Shown in pieces: positions 4,403-35,914 of a stretch of DNA of 64,000 nt. Source of the DNA: Candidatus Aminicenantes bacterium UBA2190. Lineage in GTDB: Bacteria; Acidobacteriota; Aminicenantia; UBA2199. The translations under genes were made by a program, and so were the position numbers. Under the pieces are notes generated by a model. The model was not told where the DNA came from, searched no databases, and saw only the letters and a program-made list of their open reading frames with translations. The DNA lies in contig DCVK01000023.1 of the NCBI GenBank assembly GCA_002335385.1, forward strand, positions 1,531-65,530, read 5' to 3'. The first letter of the stretch is position 1, and every line of letters begins with the position of its first letter.

Positions 4403-4588
4403 GCCCGGCGCATGGCGTGAGGCGCAAGGCGTAAGGAAAGAAAAGAAGCACGGCGCCCGGCGGATGGCAACAGCGCCAGGCCGCTCTGTCGTAATTAGTG
4501 ATTCAAAGCAGCAGGATATCGATCCGTGCTGCTCCTCGCACGATCACCAGCACTTGCACCTAGAGTTCGTTTTTTTTCCCAGTCTATT

Positions 4589-8312: not shown

Positions 8313-8454
8313 GGGCGTGGCGTGTTCACTCGAGGCGGATTATACCGCAGGCAGGGCGGTGGGAGCAATGGAGATGAGTGAAAAGTGAAAAAGTAGGAAG
8401 AGAAAAGCGAAAGAATGATGCCCGGCGGCGCGGGCGCGCAATCGGCCGGCGGGA

Positions 8455-18568: not shown

Positions 18569-19456
18569 ATGAAAAAGAAAAGAGTCATCGTTACGCGTCG
18601 GGACTTCATCCGCGGCAGCGCCGGTGCCGCGCTCGGGGCCGCTTTGCTGGGACCGGCCTGGCTGAAGGCCGAGGCGAAGGCGGCGGGAGGCCAGCGCAGC
18701 CTGGTCGTCATCGTTCGTGATGCCAAGGCCATGGATGCCAATCTGAGCGTCGACAAGCAGGCGGTGGCCAGCATGCTGGAGCAGGCGTTGGCGCAGGTGA
18801 CCGGCAAGGCTGACGCCAGGGCCGCCTGGCTCAGCCTGGTCAAGCCCACCGACATCGTCGGCCTGGTTCCGACTCCGCACCTCAATCCCACCCATGACCA
18901 ACTGATCGAGGTGGTCAGGGAGTCGCTGGTTGCCGCCGGCGTTCCATCCGGTCACATCGTCCACGCCCAGGGACGCGATGTCGACCTGGCGCCGATCACC
19001 GCCCTGATCTGCCTGCCTGCCTTGAAGGCCCATTGGCTTACCGGCATCGGCACGGTGATCAAGAACTACATCCTCTACTCCGGTGCTCCACGGAATTACC
19101 ACCACCAGGACAGCGCCAAGCTGGGGGAGATATGGAACCTGCCGCAGGTGAAGGGCAAGACCAGGCTGGTGCTGGTCGACGCACTGCATCCCCTGTGCGA
19201 CAAGGGGCCGCAGCCCGATCCGCGCTACAAGTGGGCATACAACGGCCTGATCGCGAGCCTGGACCCGGTGGCGGTGGACGCGGTGGGGCTGAAAATCATC
19301 AGTGCCAAGCGTGAGGCGCTGCGCGGCGAACCCTGGCCGATTTCCCCGCCACCCATCTGCATCGAGGCCGCCGACAAGGTTTACAAGCTGGGCAACAGCG
19401 ACCCGGCGAAGATCGACATCAAGGTATTCGGCTGGAAGGAAAACCTGCTGGTCTGA
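18569..19456 (+). CDS. DUF362 domain protein with a twin-arginine (Tat) signal
   Basis: Carries a Tat motif (TRRDFIRGSAGAALGAALL) and a DUF362-like core (LPALKAHWLTGIGTVIKNY, VDALHPLCDKGP). GGAGG lies upstream of the ATG. Confidence 0.65.
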   Translation: MKKKRVIVTRRDFIRGSAGAALGAALLGPAWLKAEAKAAGGQRSLVVIVRDAKAMDANLSVDKQAVASMLEQALAQVTGKADARAAWLSLVKPTDIVGLVPTPHLNPTHDQLIEVVRESLVAAGVPSGHIVHAQGRDVDLAPITALICLPALKAHWLTGIGTVIKNYILYSGAPRNYHHQDSAKLGEIWNLPQVKGKTRLVLVDALHPLCDKGPQPDPRYKWAYNGLIASLDPVAVDAVGLKIISAKREALRGEPWPISPPPICIEAADKVYKLGNSDPAKIDIKVFGWKENLLV

Positions 19457-19486
19457 GCGCCAAGGCTATAACAGGACGATCGTGCA

Positions 19487-19890
19487 GTGTTAGTGTTATT
19501 GTTAGCAGGAGATCAGAGTGAAATTCATGGTCAAAGACAGTTATTGAAATCGGTTTACGGTAGACGGTTTACGGTTGACGGCAAGAAAAAAGGTAATAGG
19601 AAGACTAAAATTCCAAGCACCAAATCCCAAATTCCAAATAAATTCCAAATTCCAATCACCAAATCCCCTGGCGGGGACTTTGACCAAAACGAAGAAAAGG
19701 CATGCAATTTCAAGGGGGATTTTGTTTTGGAAATTGGAATTTGTTTGTTATTTGGAATTTGGGATTTGGGATTTAAGTCCTATTAATACCGTTCATTCAC
19801 CTTACGCCTTAAACCCTGAACCTTGCGCCGATTTCCCTTCTTCCTCTTCACGAATCACGAATCACGACTCACGAATTACGAATCACGAAG
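19487..19890. repeat. AT-rich composite intergenic repeat element, copy 1 (phased hexamer/heptamer tandem arrays flanking a 178-bp imperfect palindrome at 19603-19780)
   Basis: - GTGTTA x3 at 19487-19504.
- CGGTTTA-type x4 at 19551-19581.
- CACGAAT-type x6 at 19849-19890.
- The flanks align ungapped, at roughly 85-90% identity by eye, with 42435-42534 and 42709-42780. Confidence 0.9.
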
Positions 19891-19900: not shown

Positions 19901-21403
19901 TCAGTTATCGTATTCGTCGCCGCCGATGTCGTAGGTGCCGTCGCGCACGGCGCGATCGATGTCGTAGCGCACGACCGTGTTGTTCCGCCCGCGGTTGATG
20001 GCCGGGCTGGAGGCGGACAGCTTTTTCTGCACGTCCAGAAGGGGATCGGCCTGCAGGGAATCGCCGTCGCCCTTGATGTGCGCCTGCCATTGAGCGAGGC
20101 TCATGCCCTGGGCGAACGAGCCCGGGCGCTGGTCGTAGAAGAGGCAGGCGCCGCCGCCGATGCGGAAATACAGGTTATGGCTCATCACGGGCATGCCGCT
20201 GAGCGCCGAAAGGCCGCCCAGTTCGTCGGCGTAGCGGATGCGCACCACGTGCTCATCGCCGCCGGCAGCCTGGACGAAGATGTTGTTGCGGATGTCGGGC
20301 TCCAGCGTCGGCGGACGCTTGGCCGTGGGCTCCCAGTCCTGGAAGCTGATCCCGAAATGGAGGGCGTTCTGGCCCCTTGAGGCGGCGTTATAGACGGTGT
20401 TGTTATAGATCCTCGGCTTGCTGGAGGCGTAGATGCCGATGCCGGCATAACCCGTATCGTAAATGATGTTGTTGCGCACCGTGCCGTTCAGGCTCTCGTA
20501 GAAGCCGGGGTTGGCCTGCAGGTCGAAGAACTCGGGACTGGTGTCGAAGCCGACCATGATGCCGCCGCCGCCGCAGGAATAGACCAAGTTTCTCTGCACC
20601 ACGCAGCCCTGGGCCCCGCCCTTGAAGTAGAGGCCGTTGGTGGCGATGTCGTGGATGCGGCAGTCCTCGACCGTCATGCGGTCGCCGTTGACGTTGTCGA
20701 TGCCCTCGGCGTTGCCGTCGTCGCGGCGGCCGCTGCGGAAGATCTCGCAGCGGCGGATGACGATGTCGTCGCAGCCGGGGGTGATCTTGACGCAATCGCG
20801 GCCGCTGTCGTGGATGCGGCAGTCTTCCACAAGCATGCGCGAGGCGCCGGAGCGGTCGTTGGCGTTGCCCCAGTCCCACTTGGTCTGGAACATCACGCCG
20901 TAATAATAGCCGCCGACGATTTCCAGCCGCTGGAGCTTGCCGCCGGAGGCGTCCACGTCGAACAGCACCGTGACGTCGAGGTCGGGATCGTTGACCGGGC
21001 ACTGGATGACCGCCCACTCGCCGGTCTGGGAACGGATGGTGATGTTCGGGAGACGCACCCTGACGGTCTCCCTGTACGTTCCGCCGCGCAGGACGATCGA
21101 TTTTCCCGCATCGGCCCTTTCCAGGGCCCGGGCGATGGTGCGGAACGGGGCGGCCAGGGAGCCGTCGTTGCCGGCGTCATTGCCCGCCGGCGCCACATAG
21201 AGCACGTTCGCCTCGTCGTACACGGGATCGGGCGGCAGGGTCTCTTCGTAATCGGTCGGATTTTCGGAATCGGCTGGATCATCGGGAAGCCCGCCTTCCT
21301 CGCGGGCGCAGCCCGAGAGGAACAGGAAAGCCGTCAACAGGAGCACCATCCTGCAGCGGCGGCCGAATGTCCTGCCAAGGCCCGATTTTTTGCTGAGTCC
21401 CAT
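19901..21403 (-). CDS. Right-handed parallel beta-helix (PbH1/DUF1565-type) lipoprotein
   Basis: Has a lipobox (LFLSGC), a DUF1565-like N-terminus (LYVAPAGND...PFRTIARAL) and repeated NN-I/V-x motifs (NNIIYDTGYAGIGIY, NNTVYNAAS). Confidence 0.75.
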   Translation of the reverse strand: MGLSKKSGLGRTFGRRCRMVLLLTAFLFLSGCAREEGGLPDDPADSENPTDYEETLPPDPVYDEANVLYVAPAGNDAGNDGSLAAPFRTIARALERADAGKSIVLRGGTYRETVRVRLPNITIRSQTGEWAVIQCPVNDPDLDVTVLFDVDASGGKLQRLEIVGGYYYGVMFQTKWDWGNANDRSGASRMLVEDCRIHDSGRDCVKITPGCDDIVIRRCEIFRSGRRDDGNAEGIDNVNGDRMTVEDCRIHDIATNGLYFKGGAQGCVVQRNLVYSCGGGGIMVGFDTSPEFFDLQANPGFYESLNGTVRNNIIYDTGYAGIGIYASSKPRIYNNTVYNAASRGQNALHFGISFQDWEPTAKRPPTLEPDIRNNIFVQAAGGDEHVVRIRYADELGGLSALSGMPVMSHNLYFRIGGGACLFYDQRPGSFAQGMSLAQWQAHIKGDGDSLQADPLLDVQKKLSASSPAINRGRNNTVVRYDIDRAVRDGTYDIGGDEYDN

Positions 21404-23549: not shown

Positions 23550-25784
23550 TTATTTCACCTGGGAAAGGCATTTTTCTTTCAGGAATAGCAGGAAGCCGGC
23601 GTCGATGCGGAAGATGTCGCCGCTCTCCTCGCCGCTTTCACTCTTATGATGGCGAAAGAAATAGAGGTCCCGGCCATCGGGCGAGACCAGCGGAAAATCT
23701 TCGCCGGCCGGCGTGTTAACGGCGTCGCCCAGGTTGATCGAAGGCGACCAGTTCCCCTGCCCGTCGCGGAAGCTGATGTAGATGTCCCAGCCGCCGCGAT
23801 GGCCGGGGCCGTCCATCCAGGCGGTCAAGAGATAATCCTCGTCGGGGGCGACGAAGGCATGGCCGCCGATCAGGCCCTGTGGCGCCTGCGGATCGAAAAG
23901 CTTCACCGGTTCGCCTGCTTTTTCCTCCGCGAACGGGCAGTTCCAAAGCCCCATGGACGAATAGTACAGCCTGCCGCTCCGGCCCTGGCTGGCCCGCCAC
24001 TGGTCGCCCGGCCCGTTGATGGGCGCGGGCAGCGCTTTCGGCGGCGACCAGCCGTCGCCCTGGCGCTCGACCATCCAGAGGTTGAACCCGTCGGCGTTGG
24101 GCTGATCCGCCAGCGGCCGGTCGGAACTGAAGAACAGGCGCCGGCCGTCGGGGCTGAACGTCGGCTCGAGATCGGAATGAACTCCCGAAAAGGGGGCGGT
24201 GACGGAAGACTGCCAGATGCCGTCCCTGCGCTCCGTCCGCTGAATTTCCCACTGGCCGGGAGCTTTGCGGACGGCGAAGAAGGCGTCGTTCTTGTCCGGG
24301 CTGAGAGCGAGGCAGAACTCGATGCGCCCCGGCAGGCAGATGACGCCGGGGGCGAAGATTTCAGCCCCGGTTGTCTCCGGCGGCTGCAGCTGTTCCAGCA
24401 TTTTTTTGGCATTGTCATTGTTCGGATTCAATGCCAGGGATTTCTTGTAATTTTCGATGGCAAGTTCCTTTTTGCCATTTTTCAGACAGGCTTCGCCCAG
24501 GCTGTCGTGCGCATTGGCGGATCGGGGAAACATCTCAACGTTGAATTTGAAAACCTTCAAGGCCTGCAAAATTTTCCCGGTATTCATCAGGCCATATCCG
24601 AGAAAATTGAACGATCCCTCGTCAAAATAGAACCTGCTGCCGCTCTCGCGCAGCTTTCTGAGCCTGGCCATCGTTTCATCCAGCGCGTTCGGGCCGGCAT
24701 TTTTGAGGAGCTCGGAGGCCAGTTTCTTATGCTGCAAAAAGAAGACGCGGACATGGGAGTGATGCTGCGGCCGCACCCATTGGTCGCCACGCTCCTTGTA
24801 AACCGGCATCGTTTTGACAAAAGCAAATTCCCGGTCCAGGGAGAATTGCTCCTGGATCTCGGCGAGGTCCCTGCCGGCAGCTTCCGCAGTCTTGACGCTG
24901 TTCCAGAGCTGGCGGATATAATCGAGGTGTTCACGGGCGCGCTCCCTGGTCCAGAGATCGGTCATGTCGCACAAGACTCTTTCCACGGCATTTTCCCCCT
25001 CCAGGATCTCCTCCAGCAACGCAATCCAGCGGGGGACGTCCAGTTCTGCGTATTGGCCATAGGGATAGGGAGCGAGATGGTGCGAATGGAGGATGAATCC
25101 CGGGATGATCGCCAGCTTCTCCTCGGGAACGACCACGACCGTCATGCCGTTGTAGTTTCCGGCCTTGCCGAACCAGTTCAGCTCAAGAGTGAGGTCGCCC
25201 AGATCAACCTGCATCTTGTCGCTGAAAACCGTTTCGGGAAGCAAAAGGGAGAAGCCCTTCTCCAGTTCTTCGGCCCGCTGCCCGCAGGTGCGCAGCCACT
25301 GCTCTTCGATCACCGCTTTTTCAGAGCCTTTTTCGTGGGTTTCCAAGCGTTTGCGCGAGACCTCCTCCTTCCAGCGCCACATCTCGATGAGCTGCTTGAT
25401 CTCCGCCTCGACCTCCTTTTCTTTCCCCCGGTACTTGTTCAGGAAGCTCTCATGGCCGATGATCGTCGTGTCCTTGTAGACGGCGTTGCCGCCGAACAGA
25501 TCGAGCCGGTCGACCAGATTGAGCGCATAGGCGAAATCATTCCGCTTCAGGCCTTTGGCGATCGCTTCCCTGAATTTTTGCGCCGTGATCCCGGACCAGA
25601 AGGTGTTGAAGACGACCAGTCCTTTTTCGGACTGGATGACCAGCTGTTCGTCCCCGCCATCGGCAACGGTCACGACCGATACTTTGTCGGAAATGTTCCT
25701 GACCTGGAAGTTTTGCTTTGGTTCCTCACCGGGTACCGCTGTCCCAACCAGCAACAAACAGCCGATGGCAATCAGTTTTTTCAT
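23550..25784 (-). CDS. Secreted three-module protein: degenerate MBL-fold domain + TPR + PD40/TolB-type beta-propeller
   Basis: The start at 25784 has AGGAGG upstream and is followed by a signal peptide. The N-terminal domain is homologous to the MBL-TPR protein at 32514-33950 but reads NLVDRLDLFGGN in place of NTHGHVDHVSGN. The C-terminus has PD40 repeats (FSPDGRRLFFSSDR, VSPDGRDLYFF). Confidence 0.75.
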   Translation of the reverse strand: MKKLIAIGCLLLVGTAVPGEEPKQNFQVRNISDKVSVVTVADGGDEQLVIQSEKGLVVFNTFWSGITAQKFREAIAKGLKRNDFAYALNLVDRLDLFGGNAVYKDTTIIGHESFLNKYRGKEKEVEAEIKQLIEMWRWKEEVSRKRLETHEKGSEKAVIEEQWLRTCGQRAEELEKGFSLLLPETVFSDKMQVDLGDLTLELNWFGKAGNYNGMTVVVVPEEKLAIIPGFILHSHHLAPYPYGQYAELDVPRWIALLEEILEGENAVERVLCDMTDLWTRERAREHLDYIRQLWNSVKTAEAAGRDLAEIQEQFSLDREFAFVKTMPVYKERGDQWVRPQHHSHVRVFFLQHKKLASELLKNAGPNALDETMARLRKLRESGSRFYFDEGSFNFLGYGLMNTGKILQALKVFKFNVEMFPRSANAHDSLGEACLKNGKKELAIENYKKSLALNPNNDNAKKMLEQLQPPETTGAEIFAPGVICLPGRIEFCLALSPDKNDAFFAVRKAPGQWEIQRTERRDGIWQSSVTAPFSGVHSDLEPTFSPDGRRLFFSSDRPLADQPNADGFNLWMVERQGDGWSPPKALPAPINGPGDQWRASQGRSGRLYYSSMGLWNCPFAEEKAGEPVKLFDPQAPQGLIGGHAFVAPDEDYLLTAWMDGPGHRGGWDIYISFRDGQGNWSPSINLGDAVNTPAGEDFPLVSPDGRDLYFFRHHKSESGEESGDIFRIDAGFLLFLKEKCLSQVK

Positions 25785-25837
25785 TTCAATTCCTCCTGCC
25801 GGGCGCACGGCGGCATCGCCAGCGCTGCCAATGATTA

Positions 25838-26287
25838 TCATATCACCGCCTCCGGTCCGGTTCCATATCTGGAAGGATATCTCGACCACAATTTTCTGTT
25901 GTGTTTTGCAGGGCGCAGCCCTCTTGCTTTCCAAAGATAAATCGTCAGGGCCATGAGCAATATTCCTGAAACGATCTCACTCGCGACATCCTGCCCGTTG
26001 AGCAAGAAAGATCCCGATGGTTGGTAGGTGAACAGGCTTTTTCTCAGGAATTTGCTGTCACTCAGGCCCATTCCGAACAGCGGCCCCATGGTTCAGTTCC
26101 AGATGAAATGCACTCCGATGCACATCCATAGGGCTCTTGTTTTTATATACAGGATTCCGAGAAAGGCCCCGGCCATGACCGCCACGGCGATGGAGTAAAC
26201 CGTTATCCCCTCATTGCTCAAATGGGCTGCGCCGAACAATAGCGAGTAGATGCCCAGGCTGATGCAAAAGCTGCTGCCTTCGATCAT
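25838..26287 (-). pseudogene. Remnant of a CPBP (CAAX/Abi) intramembrane protease: N-terminally truncated and interrupted by an in-frame TGA
   Basis: Only the distal CPBP motifs are present (FGAAHL, HFIWN). The EExxxR motif region is absent. A TGA at 26093-26095 is followed in the same frame by a further hydrophobic ORF (26089-25838). The 5' end abuts the isochorismatase stop (ATGA at 26284-26287). Confidence 0.5.
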
Positions 26288-26874
26288 TGCCGGAGCTGCA
26301 GGAAGAACATCATGGACTCGAAGCTCAGCGAATCGCAGATGTCCTTGACGGCGTTGGTGTAGTCGGGGTTGTGGCTCATGATGCCCTCGCGGATCATGAA
26401 GACCTTGTAGCCGCGCTCCACGCCTCCGAAATAGGTGGGCAGCACGCAGCCGGTCGCGCTCAGGCCGCACAGGAAGACGGTATTGCAGCCCTTCTCCTTC
26501 AGGATCCGGTCCAGGTCGGTCTGGACGAAGGCGCTGGGAAAGCGCTTGACAACCCTGACGTCCTCGCCAGGGGGCAAGATCGTATCGACGAAGGCGAATT
26601 CCTTCGTGCCTTCCGCCGGTCCCCAGCGCAGGTCGCTGTGGTGGACGCGCACCACCGGGAGTTTATGCTGGCGGAAAAACCAGATTGCGCCGTTGATCAC
26701 CCGCAGGGCGATCTTCTGCTCCTGTTCCGACATCAGCGGCAGGTAGGCGTTCTGCACGTCGACCACCACCAGCGCCGGCCGGATCGCCTCGCCGGTTCCT
26801 TCCGGCTGCGCCATTCCCGCAACGGGGAGCAGCATCCAGATCAAGGTCAGAATCAAGACCTTTTTTTCATTCAT
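26284..26874 (-). CDS. Isochorismatase-family (cysteine hydrolase) protein with a signal peptide
   Basis: Carries VVVDVQNAY (Asp) and FLCGLSATGCV (Cys). The N-terminal signal is MNEKKVLILTLIWMLLPVAGMAQ. AGGAGG lies upstream of the ATG at 26874. Confidence 0.8.
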   Translation of the reverse strand: MNEKKVLILTLIWMLLPVAGMAQPEGTGEAIRPALVVVDVQNAYLPLMSEQEQKIALRVINGAIWFFRQHKLPVVRVHHSDLRWGPAEGTKEFAFVDTILPPGEDVRVVKRFPSAFVQTDLDRILKEKGCNTVFLCGLSATGCVLPTYFGGVERGYKVFMIREGIMSHNPDYTNAVKDICDSLSFESMMFFLQLRQ

Positions 26875-26965
26875 GCTCGAAACCTCCTTTTGTTCCCGCG
26901 CACAGGACTGCCGGACGGCGCGGATATTTTTCATCTTACTCTGTCCAGTAGAATGATTTTGATAG

Positions 26966-27922
26966 TTATTTCCTGCCCCAACTTGGCCAACCGTCCCATT
27001 CGCTCCGATGGGTCAATCTTTTTTGATTGCTGCCGTCGGCGCTCATGGTGTAAATCTCAAAATTGCCATCCCTCTCGCTCTGAAAAACGATGCTGTTCCC
27101 ATCCGGCGACCAGCAAGGATTCTCGTCACGGCCATTTGCGGTTGTGAGTCCAACATCCCCGCTGCCATCTGGATTCATTATGTGAATATCGCCTTGAGTA
27201 CCGCTACCGCTTATTACTGTCAGCCCGTAGGCTATCTTCTCGCCATCGGGGGACCAAACCGGAAATATTTTATGGCCCGAACTGTTGGTTATCCGCTGTT
27301 GATTTCCGCCATCACCATCCATGGTATAAATCTCATAGTTGCCATTTCTGTTCGACATAAAAAGAATTTTAGCGCCAGCGGGCGATTCAATCGGACGTTC
27401 ATCCCTGTATGGGTTATCGGTCAACCTCACCTGATTTGTTCCATCCGCATTCATCATCCAAATTTCGGTTCTATTGGTGGAATCGACGACAAAGTAGATT
27501 CTTGATCCATCGGCTGACCAGGACGGTTGATCCTCCGCATCATATGAATGGGTCAGTCTTTGCTGATCGCTCCCGTCCACATTCATCATGTAGAGATCTC
27601 GCGAGTTATCCCGTTCACTGACAAAGGCGATCTTTGAAAAATCGGGCGAGAAAGCCGGGCACTCATCGCTGGCGGAATTGGTCGTCAGCTGTCTTATTCC
27701 GCTGCCATCGGCATTCATGATATAAATATCACGGTTCCCCGATTGGCCCGAATAAAAGGTTATTATTCCTCCACCTCTGCCATCCAGGGGCGTGATGGCG
27801 GAATCGGGATCGGGTTCCGGTTTGACTCCTTCACAGCCACAAAAATTTAGAACGAGCGCGAATAAACAGGCAATGATAAACAAATAATTTGTCCTTCTGG
27901 CATTTGAATTGATCTTATTCAT
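26966..27922 (-). CDS. TolB-like PD40 beta-propeller lipoprotein
   Basis: Has a lipobox (NFCGC) and six to seven classic PD40 repeats (DGSxIAF.S.RDGNxEIYxMNADGS). Its GC content is visibly lower than that of its surroundings. Confidence 0.85.
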   Translation of the reverse strand: MNKINSNARRTNYLFIIACLFALVLNFCGCEGVKPEPDPDSAITPLDGRGGGIITFYSGQSGNRDIYIMNADGSGIRQLTTNSASDECPAFSPDFSKIAFVSERDNSRDLYMMNVDGSDQQRLTHSYDAEDQPSWSADGSRIYFVVDSTNRTEIWMMNADGTNQVRLTDNPYRDERPIESPAGAKILFMSNRNGNYEIYTMDGDGGNQQRITNSSGHKIFPVWSPDGEKIAYGLTVISGSGTQGDIHIMNPDGSGDVGLTTANGRDENPCWSPDGNSIVFQSERDGNFEIYTMSADGSNQKRLTHRSEWDGWPSWGRK

Positions 27923-27971
27923 ATTTGTTCTCCCAATTATTAATTGTGATTGTTTTGTTCATTTTCTATTC

Positions 27972-28067
27972 CTACGGTCTCAAACCTTCGATGAAGGTCC
28001 AGATGGCCAGCAACGGGACCGCGAGCCATAGCGACGTCCATGCGATGACTGTTTTCAGTGAGCTCAT
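27972..28067 (-). CDS. Candidate 31-aa hydrophobic micro-protein (MSSLKTVIAWTSLWLAVPLLAIWTFIEGLRP)
   Basis: Lies below the ORF-track size cutoff. AGGAGG sits 4 nt upstream of the ATG, and the peptide has a single TM-like helix. It lies between two same-strand genes. Confidence 0.35.
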   Translation of the reverse strand: MSSLKTVIAWTSLWLAVPLLAIWTFIEGLRP

Positions 28068-28109
28068 CCTGCCTCCTTGACAAAGATATTTCGTCTTCGT
28101 CCCCGCCGT

Positions 28110-28871
28110 TTATTTGAAGAAATCCTTTCCGAAATCTTCATTGATTTTGACTTCCTCCACGATGAACAAGTGGGGCGGCGCGGTTTTGTCGTGAACCCTC
28201 ATCCAGATATGCGGGAACAGCACGCCTCCCACTTCCCGATAATCGTAATAAAACATGGGCGAGTCCTTCCGGGGGGAACTTGTCGGCCAGATGCCGTGCA
28301 GCAAGCCGCTGTCGACATCGAAATACAGATCTTCAATGACTTTGTCGGGATATGCGCGGCGCAAATGGTAATACGCAAAAGGTTCCGTTTCAAAGGCTTC
28401 AAGCCCGACGTATTCATAGGCAATCTCTTGATTTTTATAATCGATGAAATTTCCATCAATTCTTTCATGGCGCATGGATTTCGCCCACCATTCGGTGAGT
28501 TCCCTGCGGCCGGCGGGAGAGACGGACCAGGTTTTCTCTCCGTCGCTCAGGGTGTAGCTCTTGTCTTCGGGGGACCTCATCGCGCGAAAAAAGTTGGGTT
28601 GTTGATGATAGCGAAGCACGGGAATGTCCCCCGTTCCAAATCGTGCATTTCTTCCCTTGACCATCATGGTTTTCACCGCCAGAATAGCTTCACGGCCGCC
28701 AATGGCTTCCACATGCCTGGCGATGACCGCATCGGCCGTCGTGAGCAGCTTGTCGCCAAGACGTTCTTTGACTTTGTTAATGTTATTCTGGCTAATGGAT
28801 TCCGCCTGCTGTGCCCCGACGATCAGTGCCGCTGCCAGCAGAAAACCAGCCACAAGGATCAGTTTTTTCAT
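28110..28871 (-). CDS. Secreted protein of unknown function (a LolA/RseB-like fold is possible)
   Basis: Has a signal peptide (MKKLILVAGFLLAAALIVGAQQ), AAGGAG upstream, and no catalytic motif. Confidence 0.5.
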   Translation of the reverse strand: MKKLILVAGFLLAAALIVGAQQAESISQNNINKVKERLGDKLLTTADAVIARHVEAIGGREAILAVKTMMVKGRNARFGTGDIPVLRYHQQPNFFRAMRSPEDKSYTLSDGEKTWSVSPAGRRELTEWWAKSMRHERIDGNFIDYKNQEIAYEYVGLEAFETEPFAYYHLRRAYPDKVIEDLYFDVDSGLLHGIWPTSSPRKDSPMFYYDYREVGGVLFPHIWMRVHDKTAPPHLFIVEEVKINEDFGKDFFK

Positions 28872-29071
28872 GTTGATCTCCTTTTTATGCTATTGATTCA
28901 AATCTTGATCGATTCCTTAATCGATCTATGAAGCTTGAATCGCCTGTTCCACTCCGGGGGCGAAAAGTTCCGGCGTCGTGCCCGAAGGCTTATGGCCCTG
29001 TGAGTTCATTTATCAGCCTCTGTATTCATATCCCTGTCTGAGCCGGGTTTCCAATTTGGAGTTGCAGCGGA

Positions 29072-30130
29072 TCATTCCCCGTTCTTTTTTTCAAAGAGGC
29101 TCGAATAGAGCTTGCGGACATAGTTCTCGGGGACCTTGTCGATGGGGTAGGAACCGTGCATCAGTACGTGGAGCCAGCGGCCGTCGCGCTTCTCCAGCAC
29201 CCCGGTCTGGAAGACGTTCTTCAGGCAGGATTCCTTGCCCTTGAAGGAACCGCAGTCGTCTAGAAAGCAGGAGTACCAGGCCACGTCGCCGGAACGCGAG
29301 AAAACGATGCGCAGGTCCCGGAACTCGAAGCGCGTCCCGCGGAAGTCAGGGTCCCCCCACGAGTCGGCGTACTTTTTGAAATTCTCGAGCCCCACCACCT
29401 GGCTGTCGGAAAAAAGCCAGAAATGGAACAGGTCGTCGGCCCACAGGCGGAACATGGCCTCAAAGTCCTTCTCGATGGCCCAGCCGATCGACTGTTCGAT
29501 GGCGTGTTTCACTGCCGCGTACTCAGCGGAGGCCTGGCTGGCCGCGAACTCCCGTTCGATCGCGTCGCATAGCTCCTTGACGGGAGCGCTCTCGAAGCCG
29601 TCGCCGGGAGGGGGACCGCCGCCGCGCGGGCCGAGCAGCAGGCCCTCACGGACCAATGTCACCTTATCCGGGAACAGGGCCGGTGGCTCCAGGTCGGTCA
29701 GGCCAGAGGCCCGGACGAGGAAATTTCCCACGCAGAAGGAGGCGATGAGCATGCCGTCGGCATGAGCCTTCTTCAGGAATTCCAGCACGATCGGATCCTC
29801 CTTAAACTTGCGGAACTGCGGGCCGCTGGGGATGATCAGCACGTCCCAGGCGGAGAGATCCTTCAGGTCGGGGATGAGGATGTCGCTCGTCAGCAGCACG
29901 TCACGCTTCTTGTTGTAGCAGCCGCGGTACTCAGCGTCGACGCCGACCCGCTTTTGTGTCCAGCCCCTGGACTCCATCTCCTTTTGCAGCGGGAAATAGG
30001 CGTCGCCGAACCACTCGCCTAAAAGCACCAGCGCGCGCACCGGCCGCGGCTGTTCCCGTCCAACCAGGTCGGTCGGCGCCGCCATGAGCAGGAGCACCAA
30101 AATGGCCGAAAAAATGGATATCTGTTTCAT
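29072..30130 (-). CDS. Secreted fusion of DJ-1/PfpI (class I glutamine amidotransferase-like) and SnoaL-like domains
   Basis: Has a signal peptide and the DJ-1 nucleophile elbow (MLIASFCVGNF). The C-terminal NTF2-like domain is homologous to the product of 35915-36466 (VLEKRDGRWLHVLMH versus VLEKRDGKWRIVQMH). Confidence 0.75.
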   Translation of the reverse strand: MKQISIFSAILVLLLMAAPTDLVGREQPRPVRALVLLGEWFGDAYFPLQKEMESRGWTQKRVGVDAEYRGCYNKKRDVLLTSDILIPDLKDLSAWDVLIIPSGPQFRKFKEDPIVLEFLKKAHADGMLIASFCVGNFLVRASGLTDLEPPALFPDKVTLVREGLLLGPRGGGPPPGDGFESAPVKELCDAIEREFAASQASAEYAAVKHAIEQSIGWAIEKDFEAMFRLWADDLFHFWLFSDSQVVGLENFKKYADSWGDPDFRGTRFEFRDLRIVFSRSGDVAWYSCFLDDCGSFKGKESCLKNVFQTGVLEKRDGRWLHVLMHGSYPIDKVPENYVRKLYSSLFEKKNGE

Positions 30131-30133
30131 GGT

Positions 30134-31936
30134 TTACTCCGAAAAAGTCCTGACCGGTATGCTGGGCAGCAGCAGGAAGATGTCCTTGTAATGCTGGCGC
30201 ACCATGTCGATCTTGGAGGGCGCATCGCTTTCGAGGCGGATGGGCAGATGGGTCAGGCCGATGTGTGCCGGCCGGATCACCTCCTGCAGCAGCTTGGCCA
30301 TCTCGGGATGCAGGGGAAACCAGAAGTGGACCAGCGCCAGGTCGATCTTCGCCTCCGCCAGGCCGAAGCCGCGGTACTCGTCGAGAGTCGCGTCGGCGTC
30401 CCCCTCGTGAAAGACATTCCAGCCGTTGAGGCGGAACCGGAACATCAGGTTCATCGGCTCCTCCTTCTTGCCGCTGTGCAGGGTGCGGCAGGCGGCAAGG
30501 GAGACGCCGGCGATCTCGCGCTGCGCCTTTTCGCCCATCTTGAAGCCGAGGGGCACGACGCGAGCGGCGATCTTGGGCCAGCCCGCCTCCTTGCGCATCT
30601 CGGCCACCGCGTCCTCGGGAACGGCCAGCATCGCCTCGGGATTGGTCTCCAGAAAGCGCACGGCCAGGGGCGCGGCAAAATGGTCGGGATGGTTGTGGGT
30701 GACCAGCGCCAGATCCACGCCGTCAAACGGCGCCTCGCCCTTGACGATCTTGTCGAGCACTGCGGGATCAGGGCCACGGTAATCGGCAGGAGGCTTGTCG
30801 AACAGGGCATCGATTAGAATCTTGGTTTCACCCGAGGCCAGCATGACGCCCGAATTGGCGACGCGGGTGAGCTCCAGGGGTTCCCGAACATTCCTGGGCT
30901 TTTCCGGGGTACCTGCCTCCGTCTCCATTCCTTCCGCTGCCTGGGGCCGAAGGGCTTCGATGACCTCGGAGGAGACCCAGTAGATGTCGCCCAGGCCGTT
31001 GCCGGGAAGGTTGTGCGCCTTGGTGAAATCGGCCAGTTTGACCGGGGCTGCCGGTACGCGGCCTTGCTCGAAGCGATGGCTGGTGAAAAAAAGATATTTC
31101 CCGTCCGGGGAGAGCATCGGGCAGAACTCGGGGCCGGGGGAGTTGACCTTTTCGCCCAAGTTGGCGGCCTGGGTCCAGGCTCCGTCGCCGCCGCGGAAGC
31201 TGACGTACAGGTCGCTGCTCCCCAGTCCCCCGGGCCGGTTGGAGGCAAAGATGAGCAGGTTTTCTCCGGGATCGACAAAAGGATCGAATTCGCGGTGCTG
31301 GGTATTGACCGCCTCTCCAAGCTTGACCGCTGCCGCGTAGGCGTCGCCTACCTTCTCCGAGCGGTAAATATTGTTGGTGCCGGGCCCTTCGCGCTGGCTC
31401 GAGAAGAAGAGCGCCCCGCCCCGTGTCATCATGGGATAGTAATCGTGGCTGTCGGAGTTGATGGCCGGCCCCAGGTGGACCGCCTCCCCCCACCCATTCC
31501 CCCTTCGCGGCGCCAGCCAGAAATCGTTGTCCTTGCGGGGCTCCGCTTCTCCGGGCCTGGGCCGCAGGGAGCTGAATAGGAGCGCATCTCCCGTGGGCGA
31601 GATGCTGACGTCGATGTCGCCGAAACGGCAGGCGAACGGCAGCAGCCGCGGCCTTGACCAGGCGCCTTTCTCCATTTTCATCTGAAAGATCGAAGTGGCA
31701 TTCGTGATGTTGCGCACGCAGAAATAGAACTCGCTGCCATCGGGCGAGAAGACGGAGTTCAACTCGTCCAGCCCGGTTGACACGATCCCCGGCGCGAAAA
31801 TTTCCGGCGTCATCCCCGGCGGTTTCTGGCCCAGGTAGGAGCCGGCGAGCCTGGGCCATTCATCGGCAAGTACCCGTGGGGCAATGCCGGTCATGATGAC
31901 AAGAATCAGAACGCTAAGAAAAGCTTTCTTTTGCAA
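30134..31936 (-). CDS. Secreted fusion of a PD40 beta-propeller and an MBL-fold metallohydrolase
   Basis: Starts at a TTG with GAGGAG upstream. It has the N-terminal family motif GSYLGQKPPGMTPEIFAPGIVSTG, PD40 repeats and an intact HxHxDH motif (THNHPDHF). Confidence 0.8.
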   Translation of the reverse strand: MQKKAFLSVLILVIMTGIAPRVLADEWPRLAGSYLGQKPPGMTPEIFAPGIVSTGLDELNSVFSPDGSEFYFCVRNITNATSIFQMKMEKGAWSRPRLLPFACRFGDIDVSISPTGDALLFSSLRPRPGEAEPRKDNDFWLAPRRGNGWGEAVHLGPAINSDSHDYYPMMTRGGALFFSSQREGPGTNNIYRSEKVGDAYAAAVKLGEAVNTQHREFDPFVDPGENLLIFASNRPGGLGSSDLYVSFRGGDGAWTQAANLGEKVNSPGPEFCPMLSPDGKYLFFTSHRFEQGRVPAAPVKLADFTKAHNLPGNGLGDIYWVSSEVIEALRPQAAEGMETEAGTPEKPRNVREPLELTRVANSGVMLASGETKILIDALFDKPPADYRGPDPAVLDKIVKGEAPFDGVDLALVTHNHPDHFAAPLAVRFLETNPEAMLAVPEDAVAEMRKEAGWPKIAARVVPLGFKMGEKAQREIAGVSLAACRTLHSGKKEEPMNLMFRFRLNGWNVFHEGDADATLDEYRGFGLAEAKIDLALVHFWFPLHPEMAKLLQEVIRPAHIGLTHLPIRLESDAPSKIDMVRQHYKDIFLLLPSIPVRTFSE

Positions 31937-32050
31937 TGGTCACTCTCCTCGCGAATATAGATGCTTGCTCATTCAATGAGGGGCAAGCCCTGGCGCTGGA
32001 ATCATAATAATACAATTGCCGACGAATGTTCATCGCTCCCGGGGGTTTTC

Positions 32051-32401
32051 TCATTCAGGAGACTTTTTGAAGAGCTCGTCCATGACCTCCAGGGCGAAGC
32101 GGCCGTTGACCACGGCGGGCCCGATGCCCATCTCGAAGGCGACCTCGACGGCCTCGAGGATCTCCCTCTCCGTGGCGCCGTCCTTCACCGCCTCGCTGAT
32201 GTGCCACTGCATGCACGACTCGCAGTTGTTGACCACGCTGATACCGACGGCAATCAGTTCCTTGACCTTCTTGGGCAGGGCGCCGTCGCGGAACGTCACC
32301 TTCTCAAGTTCGCTGATGGCCTTGAACACCTGGGAGTTGTACTGGATGAGCTTGCCGTTGGCCCACTTGCGCTGCCGGATCAGCTGTTCGATCTTTTTCA
32401 T
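32051..32401 (-). CDS. Carboxymuconolactone decarboxylase / AhpD-like family protein
   Basis: A 116-aa protein with a CxxC motif in AhpD-like context (VVNNCESCMQWH) and no signal peptide. Confidence 0.75.
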   Translation of the reverse strand: MKKIEQLIRQRKWANGKLIQYNSQVFKAISELEKVTFRDGALPKKVKELIAVGISVVNNCESCMQWHISEAVKDGATEREILEAVEVAFEMGIGPAVVNGRFALEVMDELFKKSPE

Positions 32402-32513
32402 GAAGGATGTCCTCCCTGCTTGGCGATTTCACCTGCTCCCTGCTTCCCGCCCTTCCTTGCGGCATGATGGGCGCGCCCGGAGATGCAACGCCGAAAGGAA
32501 TCGCGACCGCGCT

Positions 32514-33950
32514 TCAGTTGTTCAACTCTTTTTCGATCTGCGCGACGAACTTCTTGCCGTTCTCGTTTGCCGGGTTCAGTTCCAGCGATTTTTGGTAGAG
32601 CTCCAGCGCTTTCTTCTTGTCGCCTTTTGTGTACCAGCCTTCGGCCAGGCTGTCGTAGGCGTTCCAGGATTGCGGAAAAAGCTGCACATAGAGCTCGAAC
32701 ATGGCGATGGCGTCGTCGACTTTCTTCAGCTGCTGCAGCAGGAAGTAGCCCAGACCGGTGAGGTCGGCCTCGCTGTAGAAGTACTTGTCCCGGTTCTTCA
32801 GCAGGTCCGCCCGCAGCGCGGCAAATTTCGCCGTGAACGCGTCGCTGCCGAACGAGCCCTGCAGCTCGCCGCTCAGGGAGATCTTCCCGGAATAAACCTG
32901 GTAGAGGTGCTGGAGGGACATCTGGTGCCCCTGGATGGTGATGCCGGGGCTGCCGACCAGGGCGGGAAACTTGTCTTTCAACGTGTAGCCTGTCATGAAC
33001 TGGTTGAAGTCGCCCCCCGCCTTGGCCAAAGCCTCGATGTCGGAGAGCAGCGCTTTCAGGTAGTTGAATCGGGCCAGGAATCCCTCGAAGCTCAATTCGC
33101 CGTTCCAGTGGCCGGGGACATACTGCTTGATCTCGTCCTTGCGCTCGATCAGCGCCTGCCAGTTCTTCACCAGCACCGGGTAGTCCTCGGCGCTGCCGGT
33201 GCGGACGGCGAAGGTGGCCAGGCAGCCGGGAGTGTCGCTCAGCCACTTGTCGGCCATCATGTCGCCGGTGAGGAGCAGCCCCTTTTGGGGAACGAGGATG
33301 AAGATGTCGCTGGGGGTGTGGGTGCCGCCGGCCTGGTACAGCTCGAAGGTGACGTCGCCGCAATCCAGGACCAGCTTGTCCCGGAAGGTCTTGGTGGGGA
33401 AAGTGGGCTTGGGAGAGGATTGCAAGTATTCGTTGATCAGGGTGCTGATGGCCAACTGCTCTTCGGTGCCCGCTTTTTTTTCAGCCGCGATCTTGCCGGA
33501 CGCCAATTGTTCCCGTTGTTCCTTGATATACCCCGTGTTCCATTCGCTGCGCCGGGGGATATCCTGGAACATCTCCTCCATCATGCCTTTGACGTTCTCG
33601 TGGGCGATGATCTGGCAGTCGGCATAGACGCCGTTGCCGCTGACGTGGTCGACGTGGCCGTGGGTGTTGATCAGGTACTTGAAGTCGCCACGCCCGAGCT
33701 CGCGGGCGATGATCTTGCGGAACGCCTCGTCCAACTTGGGGATGTTGGTGGTGTCGATGACCACGATCCCTTTTTTTGTGGCGATCGCCGAAACAGCGGT
33801 CGACGAGACATGGTCGCCCACCCAGACGCGGACCACCCCGGGCTCGATCTTCTGCACGTGCAGCGGCAACCCCTCCACCGACTCGGCCGCGCAGGGAAGC
33901 GTCACAAAGGCCACTAGAAGCATGATAAGAAAAAAAGATTTTTTGTACAT
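32514..33950 (-). CDS. Secreted MBL-fold metallohydrolase with a C-terminal TPR module
   Basis: The start at 33950 has AGGAGG upstream and is followed by a signal peptide. It has an intact THGHVDHVSG, a downstream GGTHTPSD and a C-terminal TPR module. Confidence 0.8.
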   Translation of the reverse strand: MYKKSFFLIMLLVAFVTLPCAAESVEGLPLHVQKIEPGVVRVWVGDHVSSTAVSAIATKKGIVVIDTTNIPKLDEAFRKIIARELGRGDFKYLINTHGHVDHVSGNGVYADCQIIAHENVKGMMEEMFQDIPRRSEWNTGYIKEQREQLASGKIAAEKKAGTEEQLAISTLINEYLQSSPKPTFPTKTFRDKLVLDCGDVTFELYQAGGTHTPSDIFILVPQKGLLLTGDMMADKWLSDTPGCLATFAVRTGSAEDYPVLVKNWQALIERKDEIKQYVPGHWNGELSFEGFLARFNYLKALLSDIEALAKAGGDFNQFMTGYTLKDKFPALVGSPGITIQGHQMSLQHLYQVYSGKISLSGELQGSFGSDAFTAKFAALRADLLKNRDKYFYSEADLTGLGYFLLQQLKKVDDAIAMFELYVQLFPQSWNAYDSLAEGWYTKGDKKKALELYQKSLELNPANENGKKFVAQIEKELNN

Positions 33951-33976
33951 GTGTTTCCTCCTTGGTTTCAAGCGAT

Positions 33977-35899
33977 CTATTTTTTATTAACGGCATTTTC
34001 CGCCGGCGTCTCGCCGGCCGGTCCGGCTGGCAGGCGATAAGAAGAGAATATGGAATAGGCAGCGAGGGAGTTGGCGTCGAAGGTGGGGATGACGAGCAAT
34101 TTCAATTTGGGGATGTAGGCGAAGTCGGCGATCTTCTCTCCCGGGTTGGAGGTGTCGAGCAGCAGGGTCCGTTCTTCCTGGTTCGAGATGCGGAAGAGCT
34201 TGCCGTTGTGGTCGCCGGCCAGGTAGCCGCCGCTGCCGTCGGCCTCCAGGCCATCGATATTGGATCCCAGTTCGAAGCGGGCCAGCACCTGCACCGTCCT
34301 GCTTTTCAGGTCCACGGCGATGAGCTTCTCGTTCAGGCCGACCAGCAGCCGGTTCTTCTCGCAGAGCAGGGCATTGGGCCGGCTCAGGTTCTCGAGCCAG
34401 GGTTCCAGCTTGCCACCGGCATGGCGATACACAACGCCGCCCGCCGTGTCGGAAATAAAGAAATTTCCCTCCCGGTCCATGGCCACATCGTTGGCCATGC
34501 GCAGGCCGGGCAGGGGGATCGTTTCCACGATCTTCCCTTTTTTGACATCGATGACATTCAATCCGGAGCGGTCGACCGCATACAGCGTGTTGCCCTTGAG
34601 GCACATGCCGGTGGGCATGCGCAAGCCCTTGATCCATTCGCGCTCGATGACTTCTCCGGCCGGGGAGACCCTGGAAATGAACTCGCGCCCCTCGTTGAAA
34701 TAATTGGAGACGTAGCAGGCGTCATTTCTTGGGTCGAAGACAACAGCTTCCGGCAGCGCCAGGCCTTTTTTCGTGCTCCACTCTTTTTTCAGCGAGGGAT
34801 GGGTAAACACTTCGTCGTCGCGGCGGAAACAGAAGCCCCAGCCGCCCATGGTCTCGCCGACCAGCAGCAGCAGCTCGTTGTCGCCCTTTTGCAACGGCAG
34901 GTACAGCTCGTCCTGGTAGCCGACAATCCCCAGGAACGAGCGATCGCGCGACTGGTAGATGGCGTTGCCGGAGTAGAGGGGCCGGTGGTTCAGGAACACG
35001 GTGATGACGTCGCTGTAGCCGAAGCTGACCCGCAGCGGCGAGTCGCTCGCCGCCGTCAGCGTGGTCCTGGCCAGCACGCAGTCCCCGGCTTGGGATTTCC
35101 GCGGGAAACAGCGCGAGACGTCGACCATGCCGCGGCGGTCGGCCGCGACCGGCCTCCAGGCGGCGGAGGCCACGGCCTGCTCCGGGTATTTCGTGAAGTC
35201 GACGCCGATGGCTCCGAAGGGCTCCGAGATCTCCCAATCGGAGATGATGCCCCATGTTGCCTCGCGCGGCGCCGCGGGAGGGAGCAGCAGGCCGTCGATC
35301 GCCTCGTAGCGCAGGTCGGAAAAGAAGGCCGTGCCGTCCATGGGGCCGACCAGGCCGATGCTCCCGGCGCTTTCGCCGCGGGCCAGTTCATGAACAAACA
35401 GCACGGGCTCGGGAGCGTCGTTCCAGAAGACCTGCGCCTGGGTGCCGGCCACCACGATCTTCAGGCGGTTCCAACGATCGGGCAGGACCTCCATGCCGGC
35501 GCTGAGCCCCGGGCCGTTGTAGAACTGCCAGCTGTCCACTCCGTTGAAGGTCGGCCCATATTGCAGAACGTCGTCATAAAAAGGGGAGCGGTGCGGCCGG
35601 ACATAGAAGCGCTCGTAGTTCGCGGCGTCCTGCACTCTGAAGAGCACTCCGGGGTAGGATCGCGTCCTGTTCGTAGTGGCGATGTCCACCTCGATGATGC
35701 CGTTCTGCAGCCGGACATCCTTGAGAAAAGCCGTTCCTGCCAGGGCCTTTCTGCCGAGATGCTCCTCGATCTTGGCCCGGCTCAGGTCCCAGCGCTCCGG
35801 CGTGAAATCAGCCGCCGTTTTCTGAGCCGAAGCGGAAATCGCAGTCAAGAGCGCCAGCAGCATGCCGCAAGTGAACTTTCGGAATTTGCCGATCGTCAT
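33977..35899 (-). CDS. Secreted multidomain protein: DUF1080/LamG-like jelly-roll(s) + SMP-30/gluconolactonase/LRE-like six-bladed propeller
   Basis: Has a signal peptide and a DUF1080-like N-terminus (GIIEVDIATT...GVLFRVQD..YERFYVRPH). The C-terminus is a propeller (CYVSNYF, LYAVDRSG, GNFFISDTAGGVVYR). Confidence 0.65.
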   Translation of the reverse strand: MTIGKFRKFTCGMLLALLTAISASAQKTAADFTPERWDLSRAKIEEHLGRKALAGTAFLKDVRLQNGIIEVDIATTNRTRSYPGVLFRVQDAANYERFYVRPHRSPFYDDVLQYGPTFNGVDSWQFYNGPGLSAGMEVLPDRWNRLKIVVAGTQAQVFWNDAPEPVLFVHELARGESAGSIGLVGPMDGTAFFSDLRYEAIDGLLLPPAAPREATWGIISDWEISEPFGAIGVDFTKYPEQAVASAAWRPVAADRRGMVDVSRCFPRKSQAGDCVLARTTLTAASDSPLRVSFGYSDVITVFLNHRPLYSGNAIYQSRDRSFLGIVGYQDELYLPLQKGDNELLLLVGETMGGWGFCFRRDDEVFTHPSLKKEWSTKKGLALPEAVVFDPRNDACYVSNYFNEGREFISRVSPAGEVIEREWIKGLRMPTGMCLKGNTLYAVDRSGLNVIDVKKGKIVETIPLPGLRMANDVAMDREGNFFISDTAGGVVYRHAGGKLEPWLENLSRPNALLCEKNRLLVGLNEKLIAVDLKSRTVQVLARFELGSNIDGLEADGSGGYLAGDHNGKLFRISNQEERTLLLDTSNPGEKIADFAYIPKLKLLVIPTFDANSLAAYSIFSSYRLPAGPAGETPAENAVNKK

Positions 35900-35914
35900 T
35901 TCAGGTATCTCCTT

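Follow-up and report, generated by a model that had tools for sequence, protein, structure and literature searches.

Segments that flip between inverted repeats are represented in bacteria by the invertible promoters and shufflons, such as fimS, hin and the invertible promoters of Bacteroides. In plastid genomes, small inversions arise where the loop between short inverted repeats flips recurrently without a dedicated enzyme. Two further groups of intergenic repeats are the mosaic extragenic elements known as BIMEs (bacterial interspersed mosaic elements) and the short tandemly repeated repetitive (STRR) heptanucleotide arrays of cyanobacteria, in which small dispersed repeats are nested. In the published work, invertons are detected with PhaseFinder (PMC11892184, PMC11602134), small hairpin-associated inversions in plastid genomes are mentioned (PMC6342102, PMC12928735), REPINs, which are hairpin-forming doublets of repetitive extragenic palindromic (REP) sequences, provide a comparison system (PMC3116915), and intergenic TAACTGA heptamer repeats are found in Beggiatoaceae, Cyanobacteria and Bacteroidetes (PMC4679880). 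Here we compare these systems with two intergenic loci, locus A (core at 19603-19779) and locus B (core at 42523-42713), in a stretch of 64,000 nucleotides (nt) from Candidatus Aminicenantes bacterium UBA2190, the whole of which is referred to as the window. Loci A and B are paralogues within a family of composite intergenic repeats with nested hairpins, which is found in a genus-level group of Candidatus Aminicenantes, and their cores are inverted relative to each other. The family is apparently an undescribed one of REP-like, STRR-like and MITE-like character (MITE, miniature inverted-repeat transposable element); it belongs with the interspersed palindromic repeats and does not represent a novel type of switch.

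Similar to invertons, the core is a short segment bounded by inverted repeats that is found in both orientations relative to its surroundings. Unlike in invertons, the two states occur here at different loci, each fixed across samples and species, with no invertase nearby, no promoter detected, no regulated gene beside locus A and dozens of dispersed copies. Out of four hallmarks of an inverton, only the inverted-repeat bounds were found, while coexistence of both orientations at one locus (at assembly level), a recombinase in the vicinity (in the 64-kb window) and a polar cargo were not. The plastid inversions are closer in that a hairpin interior is inverted, the breakpoints lie in the stem and independent recurrent flips are fixed per lineage; here the host is a bacterial chromosome, the unit is a quasi-palindrome of about 180 nt with conserved ends, and the copies are paralogues in one genome. 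As for REP, BIME and REPIN sequences, the copies are extragenic, multi-copy and hairpin-forming, have modules in alternative orientations and are enriched after gene 3' ends. They differ from these 20-40 nt palindromes by a core of 120-190 nt, a composite of about 300 nt and tandem heptamers, and from REP and REPIN sequences by having no GTAG-type head, no REP-associated tyrosine transposase (RAYT) gene seen and a host from another phylum. MITEs and the Correia elements of Neisseria are also short, non-coding and dispersed, with terminal inverted repeats, either orientation and modular subtypes, but our family shows no target-site duplication, no parent insertion sequence was found, and its interior is heptamer-periodic and nested in a larger repeated palindrome. 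The likeness to STRR arrays consists of tandem heptamer arrays confined to intergenic DNA and of tiny inserts at fixed positions (compare the 17-nt mini-insert described below). The differences from the cyanobacterial STRR1-3 are the heptamers (AAATTCC, NNNACGG, CCTTACG, TCACGAA, CGTGGAA and GAACTTC), the Aminicenantes hosts and the pairs of complementary arrays that form nested hairpins of about 300 nt around a conserved core.

Inverted cores within co-linear flanks

The core of locus A matches that of locus B only as its reverse complement (19603-19779 against 42713-42523; BLASTN, 85% identity over 191 columns, E=4e-60), as a sequence-only reading of the window had described. With gaps left out, 165 of 175 positions (94.3%) are identical in the flipped alignment compared to 134 of 159 (84.3%) in the co-linear one. 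As the core is a quasi-palindrome, its orientation is decided by the asymmetric centre. The longest exact run across this centre is 59 nt (19627-19685), which agrees with the roughly 60 identical bases reported earlier, and a 29-mer within it, CACCAAATCCCCTGGCGGGGACTTTGACC, occurs exactly twice in the window, at 19657-19685 on the plus strand and at 42631-42659 on the minus strand, where none would be expected by chance. The flanks on either side, termed P (left) and Q (right), are co-linear and free of gaps, pairing 19486-19602 with 42406-42522 (82.1% identity) and 19780-19860 with 42714-42794 (81.5%), and the flank 25-mer ATTGAAATCGGTTTACGGTAGACGG is found on the plus strand at both loci.

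Each core end carries a terminal repeat of the form GACT(A/T)AAAT(T/C)CCAA, and the arms of 65-67 nt are 78% complementary. The ends were found as previously noted, GACTAAAATTCCAA ... TTGGGATTTAAGTC in copy A and GACTAAAATTCCAA ... TTGGAATTTAAGTC in copy B. The related claim that flank-specific bases stay with the flank held for both copies, but it concerns a single position, base 5 of the terminal repeat, which reads A at the left (P) end and T at the right (Q) end of A and B alike; the orthologue of B in UBA6072 (L042) has a C there. Since this base is tied to the flank, the breakpoints between A and B are placed inside the terminal repeat. The relative inversion of the two cores is real, with breakpoints at or within the terminal inverted repeats.

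A mis-assembly of a quasi-palindrome from metagenomic reads, or a reverse-complement match that would be trivial for any palindrome, might be suspected from the 84% co-linear alignment of the core, from the metagenomic origin of the window and from the contigs that stop in the element. This is effectively refuted by the asymmetric 59-nt run, which matches as reverse complement only, and by the agreement on orientation at each locus among independent assemblies by the Joint Genome Institute (JGI), the European Nucleotide Archive (ENA; k141) and Logan. In addition, perfect inverted repeats reach 22 nt at most in A and 16 nt in B, below the usual assembly k-mers, so that the centre can be oriented by assemblers, and the orthologue in the metagenome-assembled genome (MAG) of another species has the orientation of copy B.

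The repeat family and its orientation

A scan of one genome per species for the pattern GGACTTAAATYCCAAATC with a nearby AAATTCCAA returned 33 genomic stretches, all of them in five Candidatus Aminicenantes MAGs (UBA2199, UBA6072, MFD04716, MFD01872 and SRP192927_co7_47, the last being a bin labelled 'Clostridia' that is syntenic with the other MAGs at about 92%). About 45 copies occur in these MAGs, and 71 distinct terminal-repeat halves were collected from the 33 stretches. The composite repeat measures some 300-400 nt and is made of nested inverted arrays of tandem heptamers, within which lies an inner module of 120-190 nt (37% G+C, in a genome of 62%) that ends in GACTTAAATTCCAAAT inverted repeats of 14-17 nt and has unlike arms, X and Y. 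Read from the left, the family order is an outer hexamer array, the P flank (GAAATCGG with NNNACGG heptamers), the junction AATACGAA, the terminal repeat GACTTAAATTCCAAAT, arm Y (…AAATAACAAACAA…CCAATTTCCAAAACGAAAGCTCC), the centre, arm X (reverse complement of GACTTAAATTCCAAATCACAAGCACCAAATTCCAAATAAATTCCAAATTCCAAT…CCCAAACGAAGA), the junction CTATTAAT and the Q flank, which consists of CCTTACGCC-type heptamers and CGATTTC and has units of the CCTTACG type. The centre is 20-60 nt long and comes in several subtypes, with nested inserts of up to 200 nt in some copies. Conservation over the 71 halves falls sharply outside GACTT. In 15 copies of four species, some 55 nt of the X arm hardly vary, and the Y arm differs by whole heptamers. 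Several of the counts given here come from manual classification of arms, among which mosaics (XXY, YYX) occur.

Most copies lie in tandem or convergent gene contexts, rarely in divergent ones, and mostly after gene 3' ends. The X-to-Y direction is co-directional with tandem genes at eleven independent loci and opposed to them at five, which is not significant. No Rfam family matched at gathering thresholds anywhere in the window, and only sub-threshold look-alikes of miRNA hairpins were found around locus A. RNAalifold on 15 cores gave an uninformative consensus structure with essentially no covariation, because shifts of heptamer register blur the pairing. A scan of viral contigs with the 18-nt terminal repeat gave three matches, which had no heptamer arrays and are ascribed to chance; the family is not phage-borne. 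The terminal-repeat pattern retrieved six loci only from metagenomes, none of the source population, and the literature on Aminicenantes repeats yielded nothing relevant. Integron attC sites, clustered regularly interspaced short palindromic repeats (CRISPR) and a CsrA-sponge RNA were also considered as identities for the family and set aside, as no defining feature of any of them was present by eye.

A copy of the core that has neither P nor Q flank was observed about 25 nt upstream of a gene start codon (L034:6380-6600, L050:420-650, L053 and L052/L054). The N-terminus of the gene product resembles the rRNA methyltransferase RsmI (by eye only), and the flank-less core is retained at this rsmI-like site in several fairly divergent species. 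In L052/L054, a small palindrome (TAGTCACACTA…TAGTGTGACTA) is nested in one of its arms.

The majority layout of the family is P-Y-centre-X-Q, as in copy B, and the flipped layout is P-X…Y-Q, as in copy A. The Q flank was joined to the X arm in 22 of 27 classified halves, and about 11-12 independent complete copies with the majority layout were counted by manual curation. Three complete loci are flipped, namely locus A, the UBA6072/UBA2199 orthologous pair L016 = L030:2443-2616, and L019, as are three partial copies at contig ends (L027:122, L045:144 and L046:437). The nearest relative of the A core is the B core (0.855), followed by other cores of the majority layout and not by the other flipped cores, from which it follows that the flip arose at least twice. 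The sequence-only reading had held that two diverged, orientation-fixed subfamilies would point to an ancient rearrangement; when orientation was tabulated against flanks, the flipped layout recurred and no separate diverged subfamily was seen, so that recombination associated with the inverted repeats has flipped the module more than once. The flipped layout has arisen independently, at least twice.

At each locus, a single orientation was found in every assembly that reaches the core. One of the outcomes that the sequence-only reading had named as refuting it, a fixed orientation per locus in all samples, is thus seen at assembly level (assemblies are consensus sequences and report the majority state only), and the active, switchable inverton is not supported. 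Locus A has one orientation in seven other samples, of which L001-L004 span the element, L005 and L007 enter the X arm from the P side and L060 enters the Y arm from the Q side. Locus B likewise has one orientation in eight other samples (L009, L010, L012, L064-L067 and L069). Four complete pairs of orthologues from sister species (about 92% nucleotide identity) align co-linearly, with scores of 167-334 compared to 81-117 for the flipped alignment, and together with three partial pairs none of the seven disagrees in orientation. The 99-aa (amino acid) open reading frame (ORF) of locus A, used as a protein query for flipped variants in other assemblies, recovered the same sequence only. Orthologues of locus A were also sought through DUF362 homologues (74-79% identical protein), whose neighbourhood differs and holds no element. 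The orientation is stable at each locus across samples and sister species.

Exchange of cores and origin of the flip

Core and flanks evolve at different rates. Between the paralogues A and B, divergence is 5.7% in the core and 18% in the flanks (a flank-to-core ratio of about 3), and between B and its orthologue L042 it is 3.4% and 8.4% (about 2.5). A recent copying of the A core from B, to which the 94% identity of cores against 82% of flanks might be attributed, was rejected, since the similar ratio between B and its orthologue means that the A/B figures do not require it. Orthologous cores are 96.6-98.8% identical in three of four pairs compared to 92-94% for the adjacent DNA, and 91.5% compared to 90-91% in the fourth. 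The core is no less conserved than the coding DNA nearby, which points to a role that depends on its sequence and suggests that it may be a candidate protein-binding site or a hairpin acting at the transcript level.

The core can also be identical where the flanks are not. In UBA2199, the core and nested insert of L017:7803-8000 and L040:1-264 are 100% identical for at least 200 nt inward from the terminal repeat, while the Q' flanks outside it (L017:7803 and L040:264) are only about 64% alike; the sister-species orthologue of the former (L037:6052) has a different, plain core. This pattern would indicate core-limited exchange within one genome. The five within-genome pairs that are most alike in the core have identities of 0.90-1.00 inward and 0.46-0.70 outward. 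The inner module is therefore a separable unit, the sequence of which is kept or homogenised independently of the flanks.

Two samples hold alternative joins of locus B. A 67-kb contig (L011:5241-5500, ERZ27315072) contains the 675-aa gene, the Q flank of B and the first 31 nt of the X arm, and then continues into another core, beyond which lie a different P flank and a Peptidase_S9 gene; the canonical locus B occurs in the same sample (L066). In the other (L069:1-480, ERZ27315046, aligned with 42270-42760), the P flank and core of B are intact except for two single-nucleotide polymorphisms, and the switch to a P'-type flank takes place inside the Q-side terminal repeat (…GGAGTTTTAATC joined to TTACGAATGAC…CCGTCAACCGTA). 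The switch points of these joins fall within the X arm or the terminal repeat. An intergenic site that holds an AAATTCC core in one species can be occupied in its sister by an unrelated hairpin of GTGACAA, GGGAAGA or CGAACTT heptamers (L030:5260-5800, L016:2930-3260 and L027:1-330; L024:5690-5850 against L034 and L050; L028:1400-1620 against L038). Long tandem-heptamer hairpins seem to be a general and fast-evolving intergenic feature of these genomes. In all, orthologous sites show swapping of core or flank and replacement by other hairpins. 'Empty' Q'-loop-Q hairpins exist, but their junctions are unlike the core-bearing ones, so that no clean empty site was found. Nor can a target-site duplication be seen, the flanks being inverted and not direct (…AATA..AG/GACTT … AAGTC/CT..TATT…, the strokes marking the core ends), and copies in unique sequence have no direct repeat at their ends.

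The reading that we favour, and regard as reasonably likely, is a family of nested-hairpin repeats in which the flip of the module is a rare and subsequently fixed recombination within its own terminal inverted repeats or arms, and no programmed reversible switch. A discrete palindrome-ended module would sit at the tip of the larger P/Q hairpin and would occasionally be flipped by recombination within these repeats or arms. Such a flip might occur at the locus itself, through strand exchange associated with a hairpin or cruciform or through template switching in replication, a route for which the recurrent plastid inversions are the known precedent. It might also result from ectopic exchange or gene conversion of cores between copies, for which either register is possible because the two ends are the same sequence inverted. 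The flipped state would then become fixed and persist. As judged from the sequences, the features of a hairpin-associated small inversion appear to be present, namely a hairpin interior, breakpoints in the stem, at least two independent flips and fixation per locus. On this reading the family would behave like extragenic hairpin DNA of the REP/BIME or MITE kind. Several points weigh against it. In-place inversion, antiparallel ectopic conversion and enzyme-mediated re-insertion leave no unique scar by which one could tell them apart. The breakpoint inside the terminal repeat is supported by a single base (position 5), and the inner arms, which are 78-86% complementary and have no perfect run longer than 22 nt, are ill suited to recombination of the RecA type. 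The very strong conservation of the terminal repeat would also fit recognition by a dedicated protein, and any function of the family is deduced from location and conservation only. Repeat collapse during MAG assembly may have inflated the 100% identity between L017 and L040, the joins in L011 and L069 could be assembly-graph chimeras instead of real recombinants, and low-level mixtures of orientation may be present beneath the consensus assemblies.

The other explanations place an enzyme at the centre. In an active inverton, an invertase encoded elsewhere would flip the core at the GACTTAAATTCCAA repeats, with its orientation controlling an outward promoter or another polar signal. The well-conserved inverted repeats that bound the segment, the occurrence of both orientations in the family with a flipped state that is not a diverged subfamily, and the flank-linked base 5 that puts the crossover within the repeat are all as expected of such a system, but we consider it very improbable. 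The frequent contig breaks at core ends, which would also fit it, are anyway expected at a multi-copy repeat, and one orientation per locus was seen in the seven (A) and eight (B) other samples and in seven of seven interspecies orthologous pairs. The mini-insert places a TTGACC 17 nt upstream of TGCAAT, which in copy B is directed at the HTH_8 and glutamine amidotransferase genes, but this weak TTGACC-N17-TGCAAT was seen by eye only, and scans for consensus (sigma-70-like) promoters and for terminators gave no sites at locus A or B. Locus A lies between two convergent 3' ends and so has no downstream gene to regulate. The absence of a recombinase gene from the window, asserted earlier, was borne out by a Pfam scan of its approximately 48 proteins, in which no recombinase, integrase or transposase domain was found, nor any Y1-transposase domain of the RAYT type. 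Clustering of ORFs across the 33 loci revealed no protein family, and hence no recombinase, that recurs beside the copies. Finally, dozens of dispersed copies exist, with an orientation bias of 80:20, and the element is one of these rather than a locus-specific switch. A MITE-like module, which a transposase acting in trans would insert at a preferred target (the apex of a P/Q-type hairpin) in either orientation, A and B being separate insertions or re-insertions, is unlikely but has more in its favour. Its sharp and conserved terminal repeats on a short, non-coding, multi-copy element would be explained, as would the several flank contexts (P...Q, P...P', variant heptamers, and the unique sequence 25 nt upstream of the rsmI-like start), the identical cores in unlike flanks of one genome, the replacement of the core at an orthologous site, the other small palindromes nested in cores (L014, L041, L030:5399 and L052/L054) and the rapid turnover of hairpins at orthologous sites. 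Against these stand the missing target-site duplication, with flanks that continue the palindrome (AATA..AG/GACTT), and the missing clean empty site. Neither the window nor the related loci (the 33 stretches, about 250 kb) contained a transposase-encoding element that shares these ends. From the orientation bias of about 80% and the extended flank homology of A and B, core and flanks would seem to be copied as one in most cases, and the core-to-flank divergence ratio is alike in the paralogue and orthologue comparisons.

It is also conceivable, as a rather speculative extension, that an undescribed recombination or mobilisation system, RAYT-like or invertase-like, acts in trans and uses the AAATTCC-type core as its recognition module. 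Such a system would cut and rejoin at GACTTAAATTCCAAAT and would move, replace and occasionally flip cores at hairpin tips. The near-invariant X arm of about 55 nt, the exchange boundaries at the terminal repeat, the identical cores in unlike flanks and the alternative joins of locus B in two samples would fit this reading.

Composition of the two loci and significance of the family

The G+C content of the window is 62%, compared to 36-37% in the cores of loci A and B. Locus A occupies a gap of 444 nt between two convergent genes, one encoding a DUF362 protein (18569-19456, plus strand) and the other a beta-helix protein (19901-21403, minus strand). Locus B occupies a gap of 643 nt between the end of a gene for a 675-aa protein (42926, minus strand) and the start of a small HTH_8 (Fis-type) gene (42282, minus strand). 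No other intergenic gap of the window is as large as these two, and nearly all of their sequence was found by Tandem Repeats Finder (TRF) to consist of short tandem repeats, mostly of period 7 and in part of period 6, with AGTGTT, CGGTTTA, AAATTCC, TCACGAA, CGTGGAA and GAACTTC among the units. Arrays of period 7 start at 19551, 19620, 19726, 19848, 42471, 42528, 42661, 42814 and 42878, with minor ones at 4414 and 8377. The region 19540-19840 is predicted to fold on either strand as one hairpin of about 300 nt (-105 kcal/mol; z = -6.0 and -7.1).

Locus A begins with an outer hexamer array of AGTGTT (19486-19505, plus strand; TRF period 6), and AGTGTC/AGTGAT arrays are found at the equivalent place in copy B and many family members. 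The P flank follows as the outer left arm of the hairpin (19543-19581, plus strand; TRF period 7), with ATTGAAATCGG and then four NNNACGG heptamers; it aligns co-linearly with 42463-42501, and the predicted fold pairs it with the Q flank. In one sample (L007:2093-2252, SRR943331), a deletion of 14 nt against window positions 19566-19579 removes exactly two heptamers of this array, which is a copy-number (slippage) polymorphism of the heptamer arrays. An A-rich junction (…GGTAATAGGAA; 19582-19602, plus strand) of the family type AATACGAA/GACTT adjoins the core. The core starts with the left terminal repeat GACTAAAATTCCAA (19603-19616) and the X arm, together spanning 19603-19664 on the plus strand, an arm that is on the Q side in copy B and most members. 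The asymmetric, orientation-diagnostic centre (19665-19725, plus strand) matches 42593-42651 as reverse complement only and opens with the 17-nt mini-insert CCCCTGGCGGGGACTTT (19665-19681, plus strand), located between CCAAT and GACC. The Y arm, with the signatures AAATAACAAACAA and CCAATTTCCAAAAC, and the right terminal repeat TTGGGATTTAAGTC (19766-19779) complete the core at 19726-19779 (minus strand). The Q flank (19780-19840, plus strand), which forms the outer right arm with the CTATTAAT junction, CCTTACGCC-type heptamers and CGATTTC, is co-linear with 42714-42775, and an outer array of six TCACGAA heptamers (19848-19889, plus strand; TRF score 70) ends the locus.

In locus B, the outer hexamer arrays (42354-42426, plus strand; AGTGTC at 42354-42379 and AGTGAT at 42400-42426, by TRF) are kept in the orthologue L042, and the P flank (42463-42501, plus strand; TRF) is co-linear with that of locus A. 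The core opens with the left terminal repeat GACTAAAATTCCAA and the Y arm (42523-42592, plus strand), which is the majority layout with P adjoining Y and is shared by the orthologue L042. It continues with the asymmetric centre (42593-42651, minus strand), containing the mini-insert in reverse complement at 42635-42651, and closes with the X arm and the right terminal repeat TTGGAATTTAAGTC (42700-42713), together at 42652-42713 on the minus strand. The Q flank (42714-42775, plus strand) is co-linear with that of locus A. Further heptamer arrays, five copies of CGTGGAA and six of GAACTTC, surround a small palindrome TCCCCCAAGGGGG at 42814-42918 (plus strand; TRF and sequence).

The mini-insert is a small GC hairpin followed by CTTT and is invariably found between CCAAT and GACC of the X-arm end. 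Apart from 19665-19681 and 42635-42651, it was observed in L018, L022, L026, L028, L033, L036, L043 and L044, which belong to several genomes, and it is missing from L042, the orthologue of B, and from other copies of the same centre subtype. Being present or absent at a fixed site, it behaves like a very small site-specific indel or mobile unit. The TTGACC hexamer arises through this insertion.

Long ORFs run across both repeats, at 19487-19786 (plus strand, 99 aa) and 42401-42853 (plus strand, 150 aa). The former is annotated as a gene by JGI (L001, 3919-4218), and a near-identical 97-aa form is present in the protein database; this 99-aa ORF is almost certainly spurious. Directly downstream of locus B, a protein of 151/154 aa with a C-terminal Fis-type HTH_8 domain is encoded at 41818-42282 (minus strand), followed by a class-I glutamine amidotransferase. 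It is the sole DNA-binding protein near locus A or B, and its gene arrangement is kept in UBA6072. The approximately 17 kb between the two loci (23550-40757) hold a series of paralogous PD40 (WD40-like beta-propeller) genes interspersed with beta-lactamase-fold, SnoaL-like and DJ-1 genes. Short core-less arrays of related heptamer types were also observed in two other intergenic gaps of the window (4407-4436 and 8377-8391), with the units GGCGTAA/GGCGCAA, which resemble the reverse complement of the Q flank, and AGTGAAA.

Repeats of this kind, which are dispersed and quasi-palindromic and have identical ends in inverted orientation, are a source of false positives for reference-free inverton finders, as copies that occur in either orientation at different loci mimic the two states of a switch though each locus is fixed. 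The present annotation documents an apparently undescribed repeat family in uncultured Aminicenantes (Acidobacteriota), a lineage in which intergenic regions are filled with long tandem-heptamer hairpins that turn over between species of about 92% identity. The AT-rich core nevertheless changes more slowly than the coding DNA next to it, and this, together with its exchange independent of the flanks, suggests either a sequence-specific function or a dedicated mobilising activity. If a trans-acting system does act on these cores, the heptamer-built nested hairpins would represent a distinct class of bacterial interspersed element. In these genomes, the repeat copies may in addition serve as breakpoints of genome rearrangement.

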